From a virus: a DNA stretch of 64,000 bases. Within the stretch, counting starts at the first letter, position 1. Every line of letters begins with the position of its first letter. Location: IMG/VR virus record IMGVR_UViG_3300022074_000002; one strand, written 5' to 3'. This document shows, in pieces, positions 32,827-53,234 of this stretch. The notes beneath the pieces are model-generated. The model was not told the origin of the DNA, searched no databases, and was given only the letters and a program-made list of their open reading frames with translations. The translations under genes were made by a program, and so were the position numbers.

Positions 32827-33821
32827 ATACAGTAATTAAGGACAGTGGCAATGAGTTTGCTAGTATAGTAAGTGATGGAGTTGCTGCGGGTGACGTAGAC
32901 AACTATGTTGACACTGGTTCATATATTTTTAATGCTCTTTGTAGCGGATCAATATATGGAGGGATACCTTCTAACAAAGTTACTGCACTTGCAGGAGAGA
33001 GCAGCACAGGTAAAACATTTTTTGCACTAAGTGTTGTTCGTAATTTTTTAGATGCAAATCCTAAAGGAGGAGTCATATACTTTGAGACAGAATCTGCTAT
33101 CTCTAAAGAGATGATTGAGTCTCGTGGTATTGATTCTCAACGTATGGTATTGTTTCCAGTATCTACTATTGAAGAATTTAGAACACAAGCTTGTCGTATC
33201 GTAGACAAGTATATGAAAGAACCAAAGAGAGAACCAATGATGTTTGTTCTTGATTCTCTTGGTATGTTATCTACATCTAAAGAGATGGAAGATGTCGCTA
33301 ACGATAAACAAGTTAGAGACATGACTAAATCACAATTAATCAAAGGTGCATTTCGTGTATTGACTTTGAAACTAGGTCAAGCAAAGATACCTATGATTGT
33401 GACAAATCATACCTATGATGTAATAGGATCTTACGTACCTACAAAAGAAATGGGTGGAGGAACAGGACTCAAGTATGCAGCATCAACTATCATCTACCTT
33501 GGTAAGAAGAAAGAAAAGGATGGCACAACACTTGTTGGTAACATAATAAAATGTGAAGCAAAAAAATCTCGATTAACAAAGGAGGGAAGTAAAGTTGAAA
33601 CTAGATTGTATTTTGATGAACGTGGACTGGATAAGTATTACGGATTATTGGAGTTGGGTGAACAGTATGGGGTCTTTGAACGTAAAGGAAATAGGATCGT
33701 TGTTGGTGGCAGCAGCGTATATCCTTCTGCAATTCTTAAAGACCCAGAAAAATACTTTACCGAAGGAGTAATGAAACAACTGGAGGAGGCAGCAAGAAAG
33801 GAATATAGTTATGGTGGTTGA
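32814..33821 (+). CDS. uvsX: RecA-like recombinase UvsX
   Basis: [32 protein letters not shown]. Confidence 0.95.
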
Positions 33822-34749
33822 TACAATTTTATTTGGAGATTGTCGTGAGACTTTAAAAGAGTTTGATGGCAAGGCAAGAACTTGTGTCACATCACCACCT
33901 TATTATGGATTGCGTGACTACGGTGGAGAAGAGTCACAGATAGGACAGGAACAATCACCAGAAGAATACATAAAAAATTTAGTAGAAGTATTCAGATCAG
34001 TTCGTGATGTCTTAACTGATGATGGCACATTATGGGTAAACATAGGTGATAGTTATTACAACTATAGACCTGGTAAAGGACAAGCATTACCAAAACAAAC
34101 TGTAAGTAAAACAAAACAAGATCTACCTGACAAGTGTGCTAAGAGAGGAAACAAATTAGAAGGTCTCAAAGAGAAGGACTTGATAGGTATACCATGGATG
34201 TTAGCATTTGCATTACGTGCAGATGGATGGTATCTACGTCAGGATATTATATGGCATAAACCTAATCCTATGCCTGAGTCAGTTAAAGATAGGTGTACTA
34301 AATCACACGAATATATTTTTCTACTTTCTAAAAATCGTAAATACTATTATAACAATGAAGCAATTAAAGAACCCGTCAAGCAAGACTGGGGCACTAGAGA
34401 CAGGACTAAAGGTAAGTACCATAATCCTGGTACTGGGTTGGTTCCTCATAGTGGGTTATCCAAGTCTTATGACAGGAAAAATAAGCGAGATGTTTGGACT
34501 GTAACAAACAAACCATATAAGGGAGCACACTTTGCTGTGTATCCACCTGACTTAATTGAACCTTGTATCAAGGCAGGGAGTGAAGAGGGAGACATAGTTC
34601 TAGATCCATTCATGGGATCAGGAACAACAGCAGTTGTGTCCAAATCATTAAATAGACATTATATTGGTTGCGAACTACATGAAGACTATGGTAGACTAAT
34701 ACAGAAGAGACTAAGTGAGAAATCATTTGCGAGGTTAAAACTAGAATGA
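33811..34749 (+). CDS. Beta-class DNA methyltransferase (SPPY, probably N4-cytosine)
   Basis: VTSPPY catalytic motif N-terminal; [14 protein letters not shown] motif C-terminal. Confidence 0.9.
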
Positions 34750-36131
34750 CAGAACGAATAGAAGAATCAATTCTAAGGAACCTCATTTACAATGAAACTT
34801 ATTATAGAAAAGTTGTTCCTTTTATAAAAGCAGATTATTTCCAAGAGTACCATGAAAAAATTGTATTTGAAGAGATTGCAGACTTCGCTGCTAAGTACGA
34901 TAAAGTACCTACTAAAGAAGTTCTCACAATTAATCTCCAGAACCGAGGAGATCTTACAGAAGAAACATTCAAAGATTCAGTACAGGGAATAAATTCTCTT
35001 TCTGATGATTGGGTTGATTACGACTGGTTGTTAGATGCCACAGAAAAATGGTGTCAAGACCGTGCTATATACTTAGCACTCATGCAGTCTATTAAGATTG
35101 CTGATGGCGGAGAAACTAAGTTTACCAAGGGTGCTATACCTAGCATCTTACAGGATGCTCTTGCTGTCTCCTTCGACGAACATATAGGACATGACTACAT
35201 TGAACAATCATCAGACAGATATGAATTTTATCACAGGAAAGAAGAAAAAATTCCCTTTGATTTGGAAAAGTTTAACTTTATTACGAAAGGTGGTCTCCCT
35301 AACAAGACTCTCAACATCGCTCTTGCTGGTACAGGTGTCGGGAAGAGTTTATTCATGTGCCACATGGCTGGTTCCGCCCTCACTCAGGGCTACAACGTTC
35401 TCTACATTACATGTGAAATGGCAGAGGAGAAGATTGCTGAACGAATTGACGCAAATCTTCTAAACGTAAACGTCAAGGACATCATGGAACTTCCTGAGGT
35501 TTTATTTAATTCAAAAGTAAATGAGATCTCTAGAAAAACACAAGGTAAACTGATCATTAAAGAGTACCCTACTGCATCTGCACATGCAGGACATTTTAAG
35601 GCACTCTTAAGTGATCTTAAACTGAAGAAAGATTTTGCACCTGATCTTATCTTTATAGACTATCTAAACATTTGTGCATCTGTTAGATATAAAGGTGCTG
35701 TTGTTAACTCGTATACTTATGTTAAAGCGATTGCTGAAGAGCTTCGGGGTCTTGCTGTGGAAAGTAATGTACCTATTATCTCTGCCACTCAAACTACTCG
35801 TAGTGGGTTTGGTAACTCTGATCCCGATCTCACTGACACTTCTGAGTCTTTTGGTCTCCCTGCCACTGCTGATTTTATGTTTGCCCTTATATCTACTGAG
35901 GAGCTCGAGCAACAGGGTCGCATCTTGGTCAAACAACTTAAGAACAGATACAACGACCCGACTGCCTCAAGAAAATTTATTCTGGGAATTGACAGAGCGA
36001 AAATGAGGTTGTATGATGTAGCAGAAGATTCATCTGCCATCAATATAGAAGATGAAAAGGTAGGAGAAACCTTACAACAATTCTCACAAACACAAAACCG
36101 ATTATCTAAATTTGCAGAATGGAACGTATAA
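34746..36131 (+). CDS. g41: Replicative helicase (gp41)
   Basis: AGTGVGKS, ITCEMAE, IDYLN, SATQTTR, SESFGLPATAD. Confidence 0.97.
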   Translation: MTERIEESILRNLIYNETYYRKVVPFIKADYFQEYHEKIVFEEIADFAAKYDKVPTKEVLTINLQNRGDLTEETFKDSVQGINSLSDDWVDYDWLLDATEKWCQDRAIYLALMQSIKIADGGETKFTKGAIPSILQDALAVSFDEHIGHDYIEQSSDRYEFYHRKEEKIPFDLEKFNFITKGGLPNKTLNIALAGTGVGKSLFMCHMAGSALTQGYNVLYITCEMAEEKIAERIDANLLNVNVKDIMELPEVLFNSKVNEISRKTQGKLIIKEYPTASAHAGHFKALLSDLKLKKDFAPDLIFIDYLNICASVRYKGAVVNSYTYVKAIAEELRGLAVESNVPIISATQTTRSGFGNSDPDLTDTSESFGLPATADFMFALISTEELEQQGRILVKQLKNRYNDPTASRKFILGIDRAKMRLYDVAEDSSAINIEDEKVGETLQQFSQTQNRLSKFAEWNV

Positions 36132-36535
36132 AGCATGTGGACTTTGATAGGTACACTCATTTCGTGGATGCTGTCACAAGCACTCCTAGTAAGGATTTTA
36201 AATCTCTTGTTGATCGCTTGGGTGAACTTGACAGAGAAGGTGCCAATATTGAACGCCTTACCACTGCTGGTGTTGGGATTAATGCTGAAGGTGGAGAGTT
36301 CCTTGAGATCATTAAGAAGATGGTATTCCAAGGTAAACCATGGAACGAAGACAACAGAGAACATCTGATCATTGAACTTGGTGACATCATGTGGTACGTA
36401 GCACAAGCATGCATGGCACTCGAAGTATCGTTTGATGATGTGATTGCTACCAATGTTAAGAAACTAGAGAAGCGTTATCCTGAGGGATCTTTTGACGTTT
36501 ACTTTTCTGAGAATAGGAAGAAAGGAGATAGGTAA
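36119..36535 (+). CDS. mazG: MazG-like nucleotide pyrophosphohydrolase
   Basis: EGGEFLEIIKK, IIELGDIMWY, NVKKLEKRYP. Confidence 0.92.
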   Translation: MERIKHVDFDRYTHFVDAVTSTPSKDFKSLVDRLGELDREGANIERLTTAGVGINAEGGEFLEIIKKMVFQGKPWNEDNREHLIIELGDIMWYVAQACMALEVSFDDVIATNVKKLEKRYPEGSFDVYFSENRKKGDR

Positions 36536-37717
36536 GTGGCATTCGACATCCTACCATCTACATTTGAAGAAGCTGGAAAAGCAGTAAAATTTATGAATGA
36601 AGCATCTGCTAAAGAAGCATTGCGTTTGTACAGATATTTGCTTCAAAATTATGGAGATGTCGTACAAAATCCTTTAGCATTTGATTCTAGTAAGAAGAAT
36701 GAATGTAAGATTATAAGGTTGTTAGAAGGTGGATTTACTATAAAACAACTTACAAAAGAATTAAGTCTCACAAAATTGAGACCAGATTTTGGTGATGGTA
36801 GTAGAGGAAAAAAAGGAAAGAATAATCAAGGAAGTTTATTTGAGAGAGACATGGAAGTCGCTCTTAACAAATGGATTGATACAAATACTATACAAAACAA
36901 TAAATACAAAAGTTTTCTCGAAGACATAATAAAATATTATAAGTTAGAAAAATGTCAAAAAATTATTGTAGTTCCTGAGGGTAAATCAAATAAAAAAAGA
37001 CCAATGAAATTAGTAAGTGAACATTGGGAAGTGGGAACTGCATCATATACTAATGGATATGACATAGGTTCTACTGTTACTGATATAACATTAGATACTG
37101 AATGTGATAATGTAAAACGTAAAATATATCTTTCACTTAAAACTAGTGGTACAACCAACCTATCTAATCTTGGATTAAAAACTAATGTATTTCCCGTAGA
37201 AGAAGTTAAGGCAGGAAAAATAGAAAAGAAAGAAGGACAAGCATTAATAAGAACTTTTGGTTTGAATGAACAATTTTTATGTGCTACTTTTAATGAATAT
37301 CAAAATGGAAATAGAAAATATCATCAAGTAGATACTAGACCAGTGTATAATCATCAATTAATAAAGGAACTTATAATGGGATCTCTAGGATATGGTTATC
37401 ACTATGTGCATTTACAGAGAGGAACAAAAATTAAACATCTAGAAATAGATAAGAATTTTTTAGAAAGAGCATCCACTCCAAGAGATGTAAAAATAAGTTA
37501 CGGTGGTGACACAGGAGGGAAAAAACGTGTTAATATACATATGGTGACTCCTGTATTTAACATGGTTTTTAACATCAGAAACACAACTGATAAAGGAACT
37601 ACAGCAGATCCACTTCGTGTGTATCCTGACAAGTTACAGACAAAATATACAATCATAGGTGAGACTGTTGCAACAGGACATAAAGGAGATTCTACAGAAA
37701 TAGCAGACGATAGTTAA
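36536..37717 (+). CDS. Low-GC protein, candidate PD-(D/E)XK nuclease
   Basis: GSLFE...TDITL...IYLSLK arrangement; basic; GTG start right after mazG stop. Confidence 0.55.
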   Translation: MAFDILPSTFEEAGKAVKFMNEASAKEALRLYRYLLQNYGDVVQNPLAFDSSKKNECKIIRLLEGGFTIKQLTKELSLTKLRPDFGDGSRGKKGKNNQGSLFERDMEVALNKWIDTNTIQNNKYKSFLEDIIKYYKLEKCQKIIVVPEGKSNKKRPMKLVSEHWEVGTASYTNGYDIGSTVTDITLDTECDNVKRKIYLSLKTSGTTNLSNLGLKTNVFPVEEVKAGKIEKKEGQALIRTFGLNEQFLCATFNEYQNGNRKYHQVDTRPVYNHQLIKELIMGSLGYGYHYVHLQRGTKIKHLEIDKNFLERASTPRDVKISYGGDTGGKKRVNIHMVTPVFNMVFNIRNTTDKGTTADPLRVYPDKLQTKYTIIGETVATGHKGDSTEIADDS

Positions 37718-38907
37718 TGGCAAACGTAACTCAACTAAAACACCTTGAACATTTGGAAGATGAAATGCTCAACTATGGAGTTGATGGTTGTATAGCGTCT
37801 GTTAATTTTCTCAAAGAACTGAGAAAGATGCTTGGATGTGATAACAGTACAGGTTTTATGCAAACTAAATGGGATGGTGCACCATCAGTTGTATGTGGTA
37901 CTGATCCTAATAGTGGTATGTTTTTTGTTGGAACTAAATCTGTTTTTGCAAAAAATTCTAAGGCATGTTACGATGACGTTGATGTAGATTTATATTATGA
38001 AGGAGATCTTGCAGAAAAATTAAAATATTCTTTGAAGTATTTTTCTACTTTAGGTATACAAGGTATAGTTCAAGGAGATTTACTGTTTACTACTGATGTA
38101 AAAAGAGAAACAGTTAGTGGAGAGAAATTATATACATTTACACCAAACACTATAACGTATGGTATACCTGTAGATCATCCTATAGGTGTAGCAACAGGTA
38201 AAGCAAAGATAGGTGTAGTTTTTCATACACATTATAGAGGTACTGATTTTCAAACTATGCAAGCAGTTGCTGGTGCAAAGGTAAAAGGATCTATTGATGT
38301 GTTATCTGTTGATAATGACACTCCAATGGATAGAGTTGGTTTGAATCATTCAGAAGAATTGTTGTTTGATAAGTATGTTGCTAACATAGAAAAAATGTGT
38401 GCTGAATCTGGAGACTTTTTAGATGAATTAACCACTCTTTCTGGTACTGCAGGAGATGCTAAATGGCATGTATCTTCATATCTCAAACAGTTTTTCAATA
38501 GTCAAATCAAAAATCAAAAGACTATATCAAATACAACAAAAGCACTCGAAGACTTGACTAATTTTTATCATAGTAAGGTAAAACCTCTTGCTGATAAGAT
38601 AAAAACACCAAAGACACAGGTTGCTAAGAAGAAATTAATATATGATAGTGAAAACTATCTAATCAATAACGCTACAAAGTTCAAATCAATGCTAGGTTTG
38701 TACAAAGAGATACAAGAAATCAAGAAATTTGTCATTGATAAACTAGATAAACTAGAAACTTTTAAAACATTTGTACAAACAGACACAGGATATAAAGTCA
38801 CAGGTCCTGAAGGTTATGTTCTACATAAGAATGGAGACATGATTAAGTTTGTTAATCGTCTTGAGTTCTCATACAATAACTTTACTGTTGCAAAGAAATG
38901 GCGTTAG
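37717..38907 (+). CDS. RNA-ligase-like (Rnl2-type) covalent nucleotidyltransferase candidate (DUF6267-like)
   Basis: Motif I KWDG, III QGD, IV EGYVL, V IKFVN..FS. Confidence 0.65.
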   Translation: MANVTQLKHLEHLEDEMLNYGVDGCIASVNFLKELRKMLGCDNSTGFMQTKWDGAPSVVCGTDPNSGMFFVGTKSVFAKNSKACYDDVDVDLYYEGDLAEKLKYSLKYFSTLGIQGIVQGDLLFTTDVKRETVSGEKLYTFTPNTITYGIPVDHPIGVATGKAKIGVVFHTHYRGTDFQTMQAVAGAKVKGSIDVLSVDNDTPMDRVGLNHSEELLFDKYVANIEKMCAESGDFLDELTTLSGTAGDAKWHVSSYLKQFFNSQIKNQKTISNTTKALEDLTNFYHSKVKPLADKIKTPKTQVAKKKLIYDSENYLINNATKFKSMLGLYKEIQEIKKFVIDKLDKLETFKTFVQTDTGYKVTGPEGYVLHKNGDMIKFVNRLEFSYNNFTVAKKWR

Positions 38908-39461
38908 TAACAAAACGATGCTATATGACATTTGGTAGGTTTCAACCACCAACTACAGGACACGAAGCAAACTTTAATAGTGTAAAACGTGCTGCTGGTA
39001 CAGATGATTATAGAATTTACATTTCTCAGACAGTAGATACCAAAGGAAACAACCCTTTGCTGCCAGATAGAAAATTATTTTACATGAAAAAAATGTTTCC
39101 TATACACAAATCTAACATATACAGCGGACCTAGAGATCCAGTAGCAGTTTTACAAGATATTATGATGGCAGGATATGATGAGTGTATATTTCTTGTAGGA
39201 TCTGATAGAGTTAACGCTATGCAGTGGATTCATAAATATAATGGAGACGAGTATTCTTTCCGAAAGTTAGACATCGTATCTTCTGGTAGTAGAGACGCAG
39301 ATGGTGACACATTTGCAGTATCTGGTACTAAAATGAGAAGAGCAGCGTTTGCTGGAGATTTTAAAACATTCAGATCTGGTATACCTACCAGTCTAAAAGA
39401 AGATGATTGTCGAATGATGATGATGGAAGTAGCAGCGAATTTACCCGCAAACTATAAATGA
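38898..39461 (+). CDS. HxGH-class nucleotidyltransferase ('cytidyltransferase', NMNAT/PPAT-like)
   Basis: FGRFQPPTTGH, VGSDR, SGTKMR. Confidence 0.85.
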   Translation: MALVTKRCYMTFGRFQPPTTGHEANFNSVKRAAGTDDYRIYISQTVDTKGNNPLLPDRKLFYMKKMFPIHKSNIYSGPRDPVAVLQDIMMAGYDECIFLVGSDRVNAMQWIHKYNGDEYSFRKLDIVSSGSRDADGDTFAVSGTKMRRAAFAGDFKTFRSGIPTSLKEDDCRMMMMEVAANLPANYK

Positions 39462-39685
39462 TAAATTTTAAGAAATTACGAGAACAAGCACTAAGACAAG
39501 AGCAAAGACACGAAAAAGGTCTGAGCGAGGGTGATAGTGTCATGTCTTCAAGAACAGGAGTCAAAGGAACTATTCACAGAGTGGGTGGTAACTATGCAAT
39601 TGTTATATCTGAAGAAGGAAAAATGTTCCGTGAGTGGATTAAGAATGTTAGAGCTATAAATAATACGAGAAGAACCTCCTTGTAA
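39458..39685 (+). CDS. Small SH3/KOW-like hypothetical protein
   Basis: EGDSV...GTIHRVGGNYAIV...FREWIKNV; ATGA-coupled to the nucleotidyltransferase. Confidence 0.65.
   Translation: MINFKKLREQALRQEQRHEKGLSEGDSVMSSRTGVKGTIHRVGGNYAIVISEEGKMFREWIKNVRAINNTRRTSL
39655..39662 (+). promoter_or_regulatory. Late promoter, perfect TATAAATA
   Basis: Exact consensus 28 nt before ATG 39690. Confidence 0.8.
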
Positions 39686-39689
39686 GTAA

Positions 39690-40466
39690 ATGAAGAAGCA
39701 AGAAAGAATTAACACCGTCAGAAACAATGATGATTTTTCATCAGGTTTGATGGAACAATATAATAAGTGGATGGGTGGCGATTGCTTCCAAAACACTAAC
39801 CTACCAGATTTACATTTATCTGAAGCACCTTTTGATGGCATGGATCCACAGTCTAATGGTGCAGAGATAGAGAATACTCTGGTTAAAAAGAAAGGTCCTA
39901 AGAAAGAATCACCTAAAGCACAACTTGCTACTAAGGAAGAGTACGAAGTTTTAGAACGTGAAGAGGTAGAGATTGACGGAGAACTATACGTCATAGAAAA
40001 GAGAAGATATGCTACTGAAGGTATGGCAGCAGCTCGTGATAACGTTGGTGCTTCTACATGCTGGAAAGGATATAAGGCAAAGGGAACTAAGAAGAAAGGT
40101 GGTAAAGAAGTTCCTAATTGTGTTAAAGAAGATGATTTTCATCATCAAAAAGATAAAGATGGTAACACAATTCCACACGAAGATGAGATAAAAGAAGGCA
40201 AGAAGGGTCTATATGACAACATTCATGCAAAAAGAAAGAGAGGTGAGTCTCCAGCAAAACCTGGTGATAAAGGATATCCTGCTAAGAATGCATTCAAAAA
40301 AGCAGCAGAGTCAGTTGAGCATGTAACAGAGAAGAAGTTAGATCCAGTTGGTAAGGCAGACGCTGATATCGACAATGATGGTGACGTAGATAAGTCTGAT
40401 AAGTTTTTACACGCAAGACGTAAGAAAGTTAGCAAGATCATTGCTATGTCTAAGAAGAAAAAATGA
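39690..40466 (+). CDS. Highly charged modular late protein (probable internal head protein)
   Basis: Lys/Glu-rich; modules CWKGY..VPNCV, GLYDNIHAKR, DIDNDGDVD separated by xxE sites. Confidence 0.65.
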   Translation: MKKQERINTVRNNDDFSSGLMEQYNKWMGGDCFQNTNLPDLHLSEAPFDGMDPQSNGAEIENTLVKKKGPKKESPKAQLATKEEYEVLEREEVEIDGELYVIEKRRYATEGMAAARDNVGASTCWKGYKAKGTKKKGGKEVPNCVKEDDFHHQKDKDGNTIPHEDEIKEGKKGLYDNIHAKRKRGESPAKPGDKGYPAKNAFKKAAESVEHVTEKKLDPVGKADADIDNDGDVDKSDKFLHARRKKVSKIIAMSKKKK

Positions 40467-41017
40467 AATCCTTTAATCAATTCAAAACTGATTCTAAGAA
40501 AAGAAAAGAAAAACTAAAGAACAAGAAGGTTGGCAACGTAGAAGTCATGCCCATTGTTAATGATGACGATGGCAAAGGTATGACTACTCGTGCTACTAAT
40601 GAGGAGGTGTTAAATGAAAAGTCAGTCTCAAAGTCCCAACAAAGATTCTTCGGGATGGTTAGAAAAGCTCAAAAGGAGGGTGAGAAGAAAGCTTCCTCAC
40701 CTGAGGTTGCCAGAGTTGCTGCCAGCATAAAGAAAAAAGATGCCAAGGATTTTGCATCTACTAAACATAAAGGACTACCAGAGAAAAAGGTAGCAAAAGA
40801 AGAGACTTGTGGTAAAGGACAGTACTATTGTAATGATACTCAGAAGTGTAAACCCATTCCAAAAGGTATGAAAGTAAGGGATGATGGGTTTTTAACTAAA
40901 GAATCATTCGAGTCAGGTGTAATGAAAGCGAGGAGATATCATAGGGTAGGAAAACTCATGTCATTCAAGGATTTCATGAAGATTATGAGTGAAATTTTGG
41001 GGGAATGGGAAAAGTAA
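40463..41017 (+). CDS. Highly charged modular late protein
   Basis: SKSQQRFFGMV, KDFASTKHKGLP, CGKGQYYC..KCKPIP modules. Confidence 0.65.
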   Translation: MKSFNQFKTDSKKRKEKLKNKKVGNVEVMPIVNDDDGKGMTTRATNEEVLNEKSVSKSQQRFFGMVRKAQKEGEKKASSPEVARVAASIKKKDAKDFASTKHKGLPEKKVAKEETCGKGQYYCNDTQKCKPIPKGMKVRDDGFLTKESFESGVMKARRYHRVGKLMSFKDFMKIMSEILGEWEK

Positions 41018-41254: not shown

Positions 41255-41262
41255 TATAAATA
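41255..41262 (+). promoter_or_regulatory. Late promoter, perfect TATAAATA
   Basis: Exact consensus upstream of 41295. Confidence 0.8.
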
Positions 41263-41294: not shown

Positions 41295-42119
41295 ATGTCA
41301 CTTATTGGAACAACGGATGCTGCTGCATTCTCAAATAGTGTTGGTGTCACCAATGGCGATGCCACCGTAACAAAGAACGCTGCTGACACCGTTGTCGGTG
41401 GTGATGTACTTGAAATTTCTGGTGTTAACTATATTGTTAAGACCATTACTAGCACTACTAGCATAGAATTACATAAAGTATATGCTGGATCAACTGCTAC
41501 AGTTGCTGCTGCTAATGTAATTAAAAGAACTCCTCCAAAACAGGTTGCAGAATTTGTAATCTTAGGTGGAGACTCTAACAGTTATGAGTTAATTTTTGCT
41601 GATTCTACTGAGGGTTCTCTTGCTGAGAGTAAGTCTCGTGGAATTAAGAATCCTGGTTGGTGGTTATACAGAACATTTACCGATCACTATGGTAACACTC
41701 GTCATAAGGCAGAGTGTATAGCAGCGATGTCTGTTGCTGCTGGTGTATCTGGTGACGCATCTGATGATACCATTGCTGCTGAAGTTGCATCTGCTGTAAC
41801 TATCACATCACAACCTGGTAACTCTGCTTCATCTTCTGGTGCTGGTACATTTGCTGTTGCAACAAGTACAACAGGAACACCTGGCACACTTGCTTATGTT
41901 TGGCAACGTCAGAAAGCTGGAACTAAGCGTTGGGTTAACATCACTGCATCACTTGATACAGGTATCACATATGCTAACTTCACTACAGCCACACTTGGTT
42001 ACAGTGGACTTGCTGGTGCTACACTAGATGGTCAAAACTATAGAGTTAAGATCACTTCTGCCAATGGTACAGAAGAAGTTACCTCTAACGGAGCAGGAAC
42101 TTTAACATTCGGATCATAA
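41295..42119 (+). CDS. Virion structural protein with C-terminal Ig-like domain
   Basis: Ala/Thr/Gly/Ser-rich; ITSQP...YVWQR...YRVKI Ig-like pattern; late promoter. Confidence 0.7.
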   Translation: MSLIGTTDAAAFSNSVGVTNGDATVTKNAADTVVGGDVLEISGVNYIVKTITSTTSIELHKVYAGSTATVAAANVIKRTPPKQVAEFVILGGDSNSYELIFADSTEGSLAESKSRGIKNPGWWLYRTFTDHYGNTRHKAECIAAMSVAAGVSGDASDDTIAAEVASAVTITSQPGNSASSSGAGTFAVATSTTGTPGTLAYVWQRQKAGTKRWVNITASLDTGITYANFTTATLGYSGLAGATLDGQNYRVKITSANGTEEVTSNGAGTLTFGS

Positions 42120-52978: not shown

Positions 52979-52984
52979 ATATTT

Positions 52985-53166
52985 GTTGGACGCAACGTTG
53001 GGAGTGACTGAATAAACTTACTGGCAACCGCTAGTTAAGGTGATGAGACACAGGTGGTGCTGCTACGAAAGTAGAACCGACTCAACCAGTCGGGTCTCAG
53101 GCAAGAAGGTTTTTACTCTGTAGTAATGCCCCTTCTTTGTTGGTATACAGGATTCCAACCTCCCTC
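52985..53166 (+). ncRNA. manA RNA: manA-class structured ncRNA
   Basis: GGGAGTGACTGAATAA...GGTGGTGCTGC signature recalled for manA; closing GGGAG/CTCCC, stems GAGAC/GTCTC, CTAC-GAAA-GTAG, CCGACT/AGTCGG, AGAAGG/CCTTCT, pseudoknot CTGTA/TACAG. Confidence 0.82.
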
Positions 53167-53234
53167 TTTATTTTTTAAAGACCTAAGATGCAACTGAGAA
53201 GTGGGGCAGATGGTCTTTTTTTATTGTGAATGTG

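Follow-up and report, generated by a model that had tools for sequence, protein, structure and literature searches.

The protein family DUF6267, carried as a gene of unknown function by approximately 465 sequenced phages and thousands of metagenomic clusters, is placed here as a new family within the covalent nucleotidyltransferase (polynucleotide ligase/capping) superfamily, apart from Rnl2 and the DNA ligases. This placement as a branch of its own is made because of the predicted fold and the invariant residues of the family, without a profile link to ligases. The member in question is a 396-aa protein encoded in IMG/VR virus record IMGVR_UViG_3300022074_000002 (64,000 nucleotides; the whole stretch is called the window), where its gene overlaps that of a 187-aa HxGH nucleotidyltransferase. 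The favoured explanation, which is held at about even chances, is that DUF6267 is a divergent covalent nucleotidyltransferase, most likely a self-adenylylating polynucleotide ligase, partnered by the HxGH adenylyltransferase. Family membership, invariant residues, predicted folds, fusions, gene order, and the absence of canonical ligases were computed in this work. No mention of DUF6267 was found in the literature searched, and no description was found of an NMNAT-like adenylyltransferase fusion for any ligase. An earlier account of this DNA made from its letters alone, the sequence-only reading, knew of no characterised function for the pair of enzymes, and none was found here. The features that carry the argument are the following.

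37717-38907, + strand: 396-aa DUF6267 protein (T4-like GC 71), predicted ligase-superfamily nucleotidyltransferase fold
37864-37878, + strand: motif I, TKWDG (residues 50-54), with K51 as the predicted nucleotidyl-accepting lysine
38314-38757, + strand: helical insert (approximately residues 200-347), after motif IIIa and before motif IV
38809-38871, + strand: motifs IV and V, EGYVL ... IKF ... FS (residues 365-385)
38898-39461, + strand: 187-aa HxGH (here TTGH) nucleotidyltransferase, NMNAT/PPAT-like, labelled 'cytidyltransferase' in relatives
39458-39685, + strand: 75-aa small domain protein, phrog_4808, ATGA-coupled to the 187-aa gene

The three open reading frames (ORFs) of 396, 187, and 75 aa were confirmed at these positions on the + strand. 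The junction sequences agree with the earlier description of an overlap between the first two genes (10 nt, 38898-38907) and of ATGA coupling to the third (39458-39461).

Fold and conserved residues of DUF6267

Pfam DUF6267 covers the 396-aa protein end to end (E 3e-118), and GenBank notes name the family 'T4-LIKE GC: 71'. The family comprises 2,262 clusters at 50% identity (E <= 0.001). Nearly all of the phage records that carry it are marine cyanomyoviruses, and the gene is near-universal in the T4-like phages of ocean cyanobacteria; other carriers are SAR11 and Methylophilales myophages and phages of Stenotrophomonas, Vibrio, and Pseudoalteromonas. An alignment of 102 members with a mean identity of approximately 35% revealed that H9, H12, K51, D53, G54, G61, F70, K74, D121, Y148, H170, E365, G366, K377, and F384 are invariant and that S385 and F141 are conserved in at least 90% of the members. 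K51, D53, and G54 form the KxDG of covalent nucleotidyltransferase motif I and are invariant in the short forms as well. Motif I is followed collinearly by motif III (D121), motif IIIa (F141, Y148), motif IV (E365/G366), and motif V (K377), where the individual assignments of motifs III, IIIa, IV, and V are made by analogy. The helical insert is poorly conserved, is shortened in P-SSM7 and S-SSM7, and is mostly absent from short homologues of 309-321 aa, which retain every invariant residue. The TKWDG, QGD, EGYVL, and IKF..FS strings pointed out in the sequence-only reading are therefore not chance strings, since their core residues are invariant across the 102 members.

The AlphaFold2 model of the 396-aa protein (pLDDT 94.4, pTM 0.90) places motif I at the end of the strand formed by residues 47-51 and motifs III, IIIa, IV, and V each on a beta-strand, and it features a nucleotidyltransferase-domain fold. 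The large insert that had been proposed ahead of motif IV is seen in the model as helices at 211-346, within approximately residues 200-347. Structure prediction and fold comparison, which had been suggested as a check, point to a ligase-type covalent nucleotidyltransferase fold, and the top structural matches of the model are RNA ligases, not DNA ligases. A Foldseek search of the model against the PDB gave nothing meaningful. A 446-aa uncharacterised protein from Pseudomonas phage PA5oct (BFVD A0A4Y5JUK8) matches the model with an E of 2.7e-6 and a TM of only 0.40. By this comparison it may be related to DUF6267 at a very great distance; the transferase, too, is found in this phage group.

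In an independent library search, DUF6267 members rank first and are followed by a weak tail of annotated RNA ligases. Three DUF6267 members give weak RNA_lig_T4_1 matches, and no PF09414 match was found among the members. Searches with phmmer and profile hmmsearch against PDB sequences returned only low-complexity matches, inside the helical insert. Alignment of the DUF6267 profile with T4 Rnl2 and a 7-member Rnl2 alignment by hhalign gave a probability of approximately 1% or less (E 0.05-0.6), and alignments with these two and with T4 Rnl1 were non-significant with or without the insert and misregistered motif I. The best local profile alignments of motifs IV-V, with 'EGYVA..FKIK' of T4 Rnl1 and 'EGfV..KFSE' of Rnl2, are also non-significant. 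The suggestion that the protein closely echoes T4 Rnl2 holds only locally, since the sequence likeness is limited to the motif IV-V stretch and is statistically non-significant. The chain ends 19 residues past K377 and therefore lacks an OB domain or Rnl2 C-domain; no PF01068 match was found in the 396-aa protein, and the model has no beta-barrel domain after motif V. Membership of the Rnl2 family was ruled out by the missing profile match and Rnl2 C-terminal domain, and membership of the gp30-type ATP-dependent DNA ligases by the missing PF01068 profile and OB domain.

The HxGH transferase and its link to DUF6267

The 187-aa protein matches phrog_3041 (E 1.7e-63). G13, P17, G21, H22, P53, S142, and R147 are invariant in 28 diverse domains of this transferase, which shows the (H/T)xGH motif, the ISxTxxR-type motif, and the Rossmann-like predicted fold of the HxGH (HIGH) superfamily. 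A Foldseek search of the transferase model (pLDDT 89.8) returned the NadM NMNAT 2qjo first (E 2e-6, TM 0.66), then archaeal NMNAT, NadD, and PPAT, and the matches to NMNAT, NadD, and PPAT structures span E 2e-6 to 1e-4 and TM 0.5-0.66. The earlier description of this protein as NMNAT/PPAT-like is consistent with the invariance of G21-H22 in TTGH and of S142...R147 in SGTKMR, and Foldseek agrees. The protein scores under the Pfam cut-off for PF01467 (19.4 bits vs 21) and far under the curated NMNAT threshold of TIGR01526 (18.9 bits vs 341). The NCBIfam search gave nothing for DUF6267 and only weak sub-threshold matches for the other three proteins. Because the signatures are invariant and the structural matches are NadM, NMNAT, NadD, and PPAT, the 187-aa protein is assigned to the adenylyltransferase branch of the HxGH enzymes. 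No support was found for 'cytidyltransferase', its name in databases. The TagD (glycerol-3-phosphate cytidylyltransferase) reading of some papers was rejected, since the closest structures are adenylyltransferases.

Fusions were counted with a clean transferase-domain profile on the 142 DUF6267 proteins of at least 500 aa. The transferase domain is present in 65 of them, located before DUF6267 in 50, after it in 14, and in one with a Walker-A domain between the two. The fusions constitute 65 independent 90%-identity clusters, many have hundreds of residues between the two domains, and the fused architecture is also found in PHROG and ESM Atlas clusters. The functional link proposed for the two enzymes is borne out by these Rosetta-stone fusions, which occur in both orders. 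Additionally, three other long forms have a P-loop kinase (AAA_33/Zeta-toxin type), which is N-terminal in some DUF6267 proteins; kinase forms number 4 of the 142, and one of the kinase fusions represents 344 member sequences. Single-cluster fusions (P0015, P0016, P0063, P0093) join DUF6267 to ADP-ribosyltransferase exotoxin-type, plastocyanin-like copper-binding, DUF192, and SET domains. A later S-PM2 entry, A0A0M6VVW4 (BFVD), has DUF6267 and transferase joined in a single protein of 591 aa. The first S-PM2 record, AJ630128, gives the match as two pieces that are annotated as separate genes. Either a frameshift or a strain difference would account for this discrepancy.

In the 80 nearest viral contigs, which are close kin, DUF6267, transferase, and small ORF follow one another in this order whenever the contig reaches far enough. 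The transferase lies within 5 kb of divergent DUF6267 genes at 28 of 211 loci, or at 21 if only the 102 loci with 4 kb or more of downstream sequence are counted. The two genes are far apart in some cyanophages, their adjacency is lost in ACG-2014f and S-SSM7, and the transferase is present in jumbo phages of enterobacteria and Pseudomonas that give no DUF6267 match. A lack of co-conservation had been named beforehand as a possible refutation of the link; the genes are adjacent in all close relatives but in only approximately 20% of divergent loci. The link between DUF6267 and the transferase, as judged from fusions and gene order, appears real but not obligatory.

Replication block, extent of the module and virion association

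The cassette is located in a T4-like cyanomyovirus, with S-RSM4, S-WAM2, and Syn1 (Kyanoviridae) as the nearest annotated relatives. The + strand genes are densely packed from a gp41-type helicase through two Lys-rich ORFs (34746-41017). The features around the enzyme genes are listed below.

34746-36131, + strand: gp41-type helicase, first gene of the packed run
36119-36535, + strand: MazG, just upstream of the 393-aa gene
36536-37717, + strand: 393-aa gene, phrog_8438, with TAATG coupling to the 396-aa gene; possible PD-(D/E)xK/restriction-endonuclease-like nuclease
39655-39662, + strand: TATAAATA, a T4-type late-promoter-like motif
39690-40466, + strand: 258-aa protein rich in Lys and Glu, phrog_4359, with a homologue detected in virions
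40463-41017, + strand: 184-aa Lys-rich ORF (24.5% K+R)

The replicative helicase is the most constant neighbour of DUF6267 and lies upstream on the same strand at 150 of the 211 divergent loci. Ligase profile searches, for which T4 served as a positive control and scored, found no PF01068, PF01653, or PF09414 match in the genomes of S-RSM4 and G002 and no PF01068 or PF01653 match in those of HTVC008M, Melnitz, C48C1, and G003. It has long been noted that T4-like cyanophages and the SAR11 myophage lack the gp30 DNA ligase. DUF6267 is the only ligase-fold protein in most carrier phages. The view that it simply replaces gp30 was rejected as a sufficient explanation, since DLP6 and a 328-kb phage carry a gp30-type ligase besides DUF6267. 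The DLP6 paper lists gp30 among the non-cyanophage core genes (PMC5349666). A PADLOC search matched no defence-related family. The gene two places upstream of DUF6267 in 37 divergent loci matches Pfam DruA (Druantia protein) with an E of 6e-12 (e.g., L151:1838-2953 (+)).

The gene after DUF6267 in DLP6, HTVC008M, Melnitz, and C48C1 encodes a single protein of 447-722 aa, which holds the HxGH domain, a phrog_4808 domain, and segments like the 258-aa ORF of the window, with DUF5824 in three of the four. The small genes of the window thus appear to be split versions of one multidomain protein. The limits of 37717-39685 originally set for the module are therefore too narrow and the right-hand border at 39685 too tight, since the 187-, 75-, and 258-aa products correspond to domains of one protein elsewhere. 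The 75-aa ORF aligns with the Melnitz 650-aa protein at residues 212-268 and with the S-SZBM1 362-aa protein at residues 267-313. Its feature-space neighbours, PSHCP (SH3_1 in 30% of members) and DfrB, score 0.84-0.85, below the confidence level of the tool, and the SH3/KOW-like fold assigned earlier is a weak lead. The 75-aa family is labelled 'ribonucleotide reductase alpha subunit' in PHROG 4808 and GenBank and 'NrdB' in Atlas cluster names. No ribonucleotide reductase family match was found in the 75-aa ORF, and these names look like a propagated mis-annotation because the product is only 75 aa long, lacks such a match, and is a domain of a transferase protein elsewhere. With 'cytidyltransferase', three propagated annotations are corrected.

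A BLAST comparison matched the 258-aa ORF to S-SZBM1 gp137 (48% over 64 aa, E 7e-13), and the ORF also matches the large fused transferases of Melnitz and C48C1 in their middle part. The 184-aa ORF has a weak DUF3008 match and, in the BLAST comparison, a likeness in composition only; it is possibly, with some uncertainty, part of the same late/virion block. The distant DUF6267 carriers examined have a gene of 300-470 aa in the position of the 393-aa gene. The nearest Atlas feature clusters of the 393-aa protein include some, scoring 0.93-0.94, that have MspI/HinP1I/HaeIII families in approximately 10% of members; the protein has no Pfam match and no PDB sequence match. The position of the module directly after mazG and this ORF stands, and a restriction-endonuclease-like nuclease is a weak lead only. 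Elsewhere in the window, an N6/N4 DNA methyltransferase gene (33811-34749 (+), PF01555, E 1e-59) lies shortly before the helicase gene, and a full-length manA RNA motif (52984-53169 (+); RF01745, 181 bits, E 9e-49) is the sole Rfam match.

Studies using liquid chromatography-mass spectrometry (LC-MS) detected the transferase in S-SZBM1 and S-CREM2 virions together with its downstream neighbour (PMC9146016, PMC10665884), which is a homologue of the 258-aa ORF. S-SZBM1_139 (457 aa) was also found in virions by LC-MS (PMC9146016). DUF6267 is not in the S-SZBM1 virion table (PMC9146016), and the S-CREM2 table has no ORF immediately upstream of the transferase (PMC10665884). The 'cytidyltransferase' was already called an NMNAT homologue that is frequent in cyanophage virions (PMC10665884), and the virion transferase was proposed to enter the host (PMC10665884, PMC9146016). 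The sequence-only reading lacked this virion association of the transferase and the downstream Lys-rich protein, which is known from the published proteomes. TATAAATA precedes the 258-aa ORF by 28 nt, and none lies ahead of the enzyme genes. With 4 matches observed vs 6 expected, the motif is no more frequent in the window than by chance, and the copy at 39655 is suggestive by position alone. A second TATAAATA (41255-41262 (+)) is located 33 nt before a 274-aa ORF (41295-42119); the S-RSM4 gene that corresponds to this ORF by position is annotated 'head protein'.

Possible functions and comparison with known systems

In the favoured explanation, DUF6267 would self-adenylylate on Lys51 and pass the AMP to a 5'-phosphate nucleic-acid end, which would then be sealed; what we infer here is that a lysyl-AMP forms, that the substrate is a nucleic acid, and how the two enzymes are coupled. 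The usual OB or C-terminal domain of a ligase would be replaced by the variable helical insert. The enzyme would serve the block of replication/recombination genes that follows the gp41-type helicase by nick sealing or end repair on DNA or RNA, a role favoured because DUF6267 lies in the replication block and is the only ligase-fold protein in most carriers. The HxGH enzyme would make or regenerate an adenylyl donor (e.g., NAD+ from NMN plus ATP) or adenylylate the same phosphate acceptor, and the earlier proposal of an activated nucleotide passed from one enzyme to its partner is a plausible conjecture. A ligase-fold enzyme beside the replicative helicase is a testable candidate for the ligase that these phages appear to lack. 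In a more specific and decidedly improbable version, the least likely proposal considered here, DUF6267 would be the nick-sealing ligase that T4-like cyanophages and pelagiphages are missing and would run on an NAD+ cycle, taking AMP from NAD+ while the NMNAT-like partner remakes NAD+ from the released NMN and ATP. If true, NAD+-using ligases would for the first time extend beyond the LigA family, here with the regeneration of the cofactor built in, and phage replication would be freed from the host NAD+ pool.

Three other explanations were weighed. RNA repair like that of T4 Pnkp plus Rnl, in which DUF6267 reseals host or phage tRNA or RNA cut by host ribonucleases and the kinase-fused forms heal the ends, is unlikely, though it ranks highest among these three. 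It would account for the RNA ligases as best structural matches over DNA ligases, for the P-loop kinase fusions, and for DLP6 and a jumbo phage pairing DUF6267 with a canonical DNA ligase, as T4 does with its RNA ligases. However, neither the window nor the kinase fusions yielded a phosphatase or cyclic-phosphodiesterase domain for end healing, the cassette of the window phage has no kinase, and the conserved neighbour is the replicative helicase and not tRNA genes. Next in order, and again unlikely, is an NAD+-centred counter-defence or host take-over, in which a virion-delivered NMNAT-like enzyme rebuilds NAD+ early in infection and DUF6267 consumes or produces a small molecule or protein adduct that is NAD-related or adenylylated, with no sealing of nucleic acids. 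The transferase is structurally closest to NMNATs, is in two cyanophage virion proteomes for which host entry was proposed (PMC10665884, PMC9146016), and occurs in phage groups without a DUF6267 match, and one DUF6267 is fused to a domain of another NAD+ user, the ADP-ribosyltransferase. Against this, the cassette showed no companion enzyme that produces NMN, PADLOC gave no defence-related match, the transferase scores far under the curated NMNAT thresholds, the fold and invariant residues of DUF6267 are of the polynucleotide-ligase type, and its gene is steadily located in the replication block.

Less probable still are two separate modules, in which DUF6267 would work in the replication block and the transferase would belong with the small domain and the Lys-rich proteins to the virion or late products. 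Adjacency would then be inherited synteny and some fusions would be gene-calling read-throughs of overlapping genes. The late-promoter-like TATAAATA at 39655 divides the two blocks, the virion proteomes include the transferase and its downstream neighbours and not DUF6267 (PMC9146016), and adjacency is lost in approximately 80% of divergent loci as well as in ACG-2014f and S-SSM7. However, the fusions occur in both orders and in 65 independent clusters, the fused architecture is present in PHROG and ESM Atlas clusters too, and the hundreds of residues between the domains in many fusions are impossible from read-through of a 10-nt overlap.

In comparison with the ATP-dependent RNA ligases (Naegleria NgrRnl/Rnl5, trypanosome REL1, T4 Rnl2, the fungal Trl1 ligase domain, and T4 Rnl1), DUF6267 has no significant sequence or profile similarity and lacks the Rnl2 C-terminal domain, the Rnl1 tRNA-binding domain, and the NgrRnl N-terminal domain. 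It differs additionally by approximately 150 residues of helical insert that part motif IIIa from motif IV, by an invariant N-terminal segment, HLEHxED, that is specific to the family, and by a single invariant lysine at motif V. Unlike the ATP-dependent DNA ligases (T4 gp30, T7, Chlorella virus, and archaeal), DUF6267 has no OB domain and no PF01068 match, and it coexists with a gp30-type ligase in DLP6 and one jumbo phage. The kinase-DUF6267 forms share the end-healing plus sealing layout of bacterial Pnkp and of the baculovirus and Marseillevirus kinase-ligase fusions; however, no phosphatase domain was detected in them, and they are a minority (4/142) that is absent from the window. The 187-aa protein shares the fold, the GRFQP..GH signature, and the S..T..R motif with NadM/archaeal NMNATs, NadD, and PPAT, although the identity is only 16-19% and the scores do not reach the cut-offs of Pfam and NCBIfam. 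In the window transferase, Thr takes the place of the first His of HxGH, as in PPAT. Unlike these enzymes, the phage transferase usually forms one protein with an SH3-like domain, Lys-rich segments, and DUF5824, and it is virion-associated.

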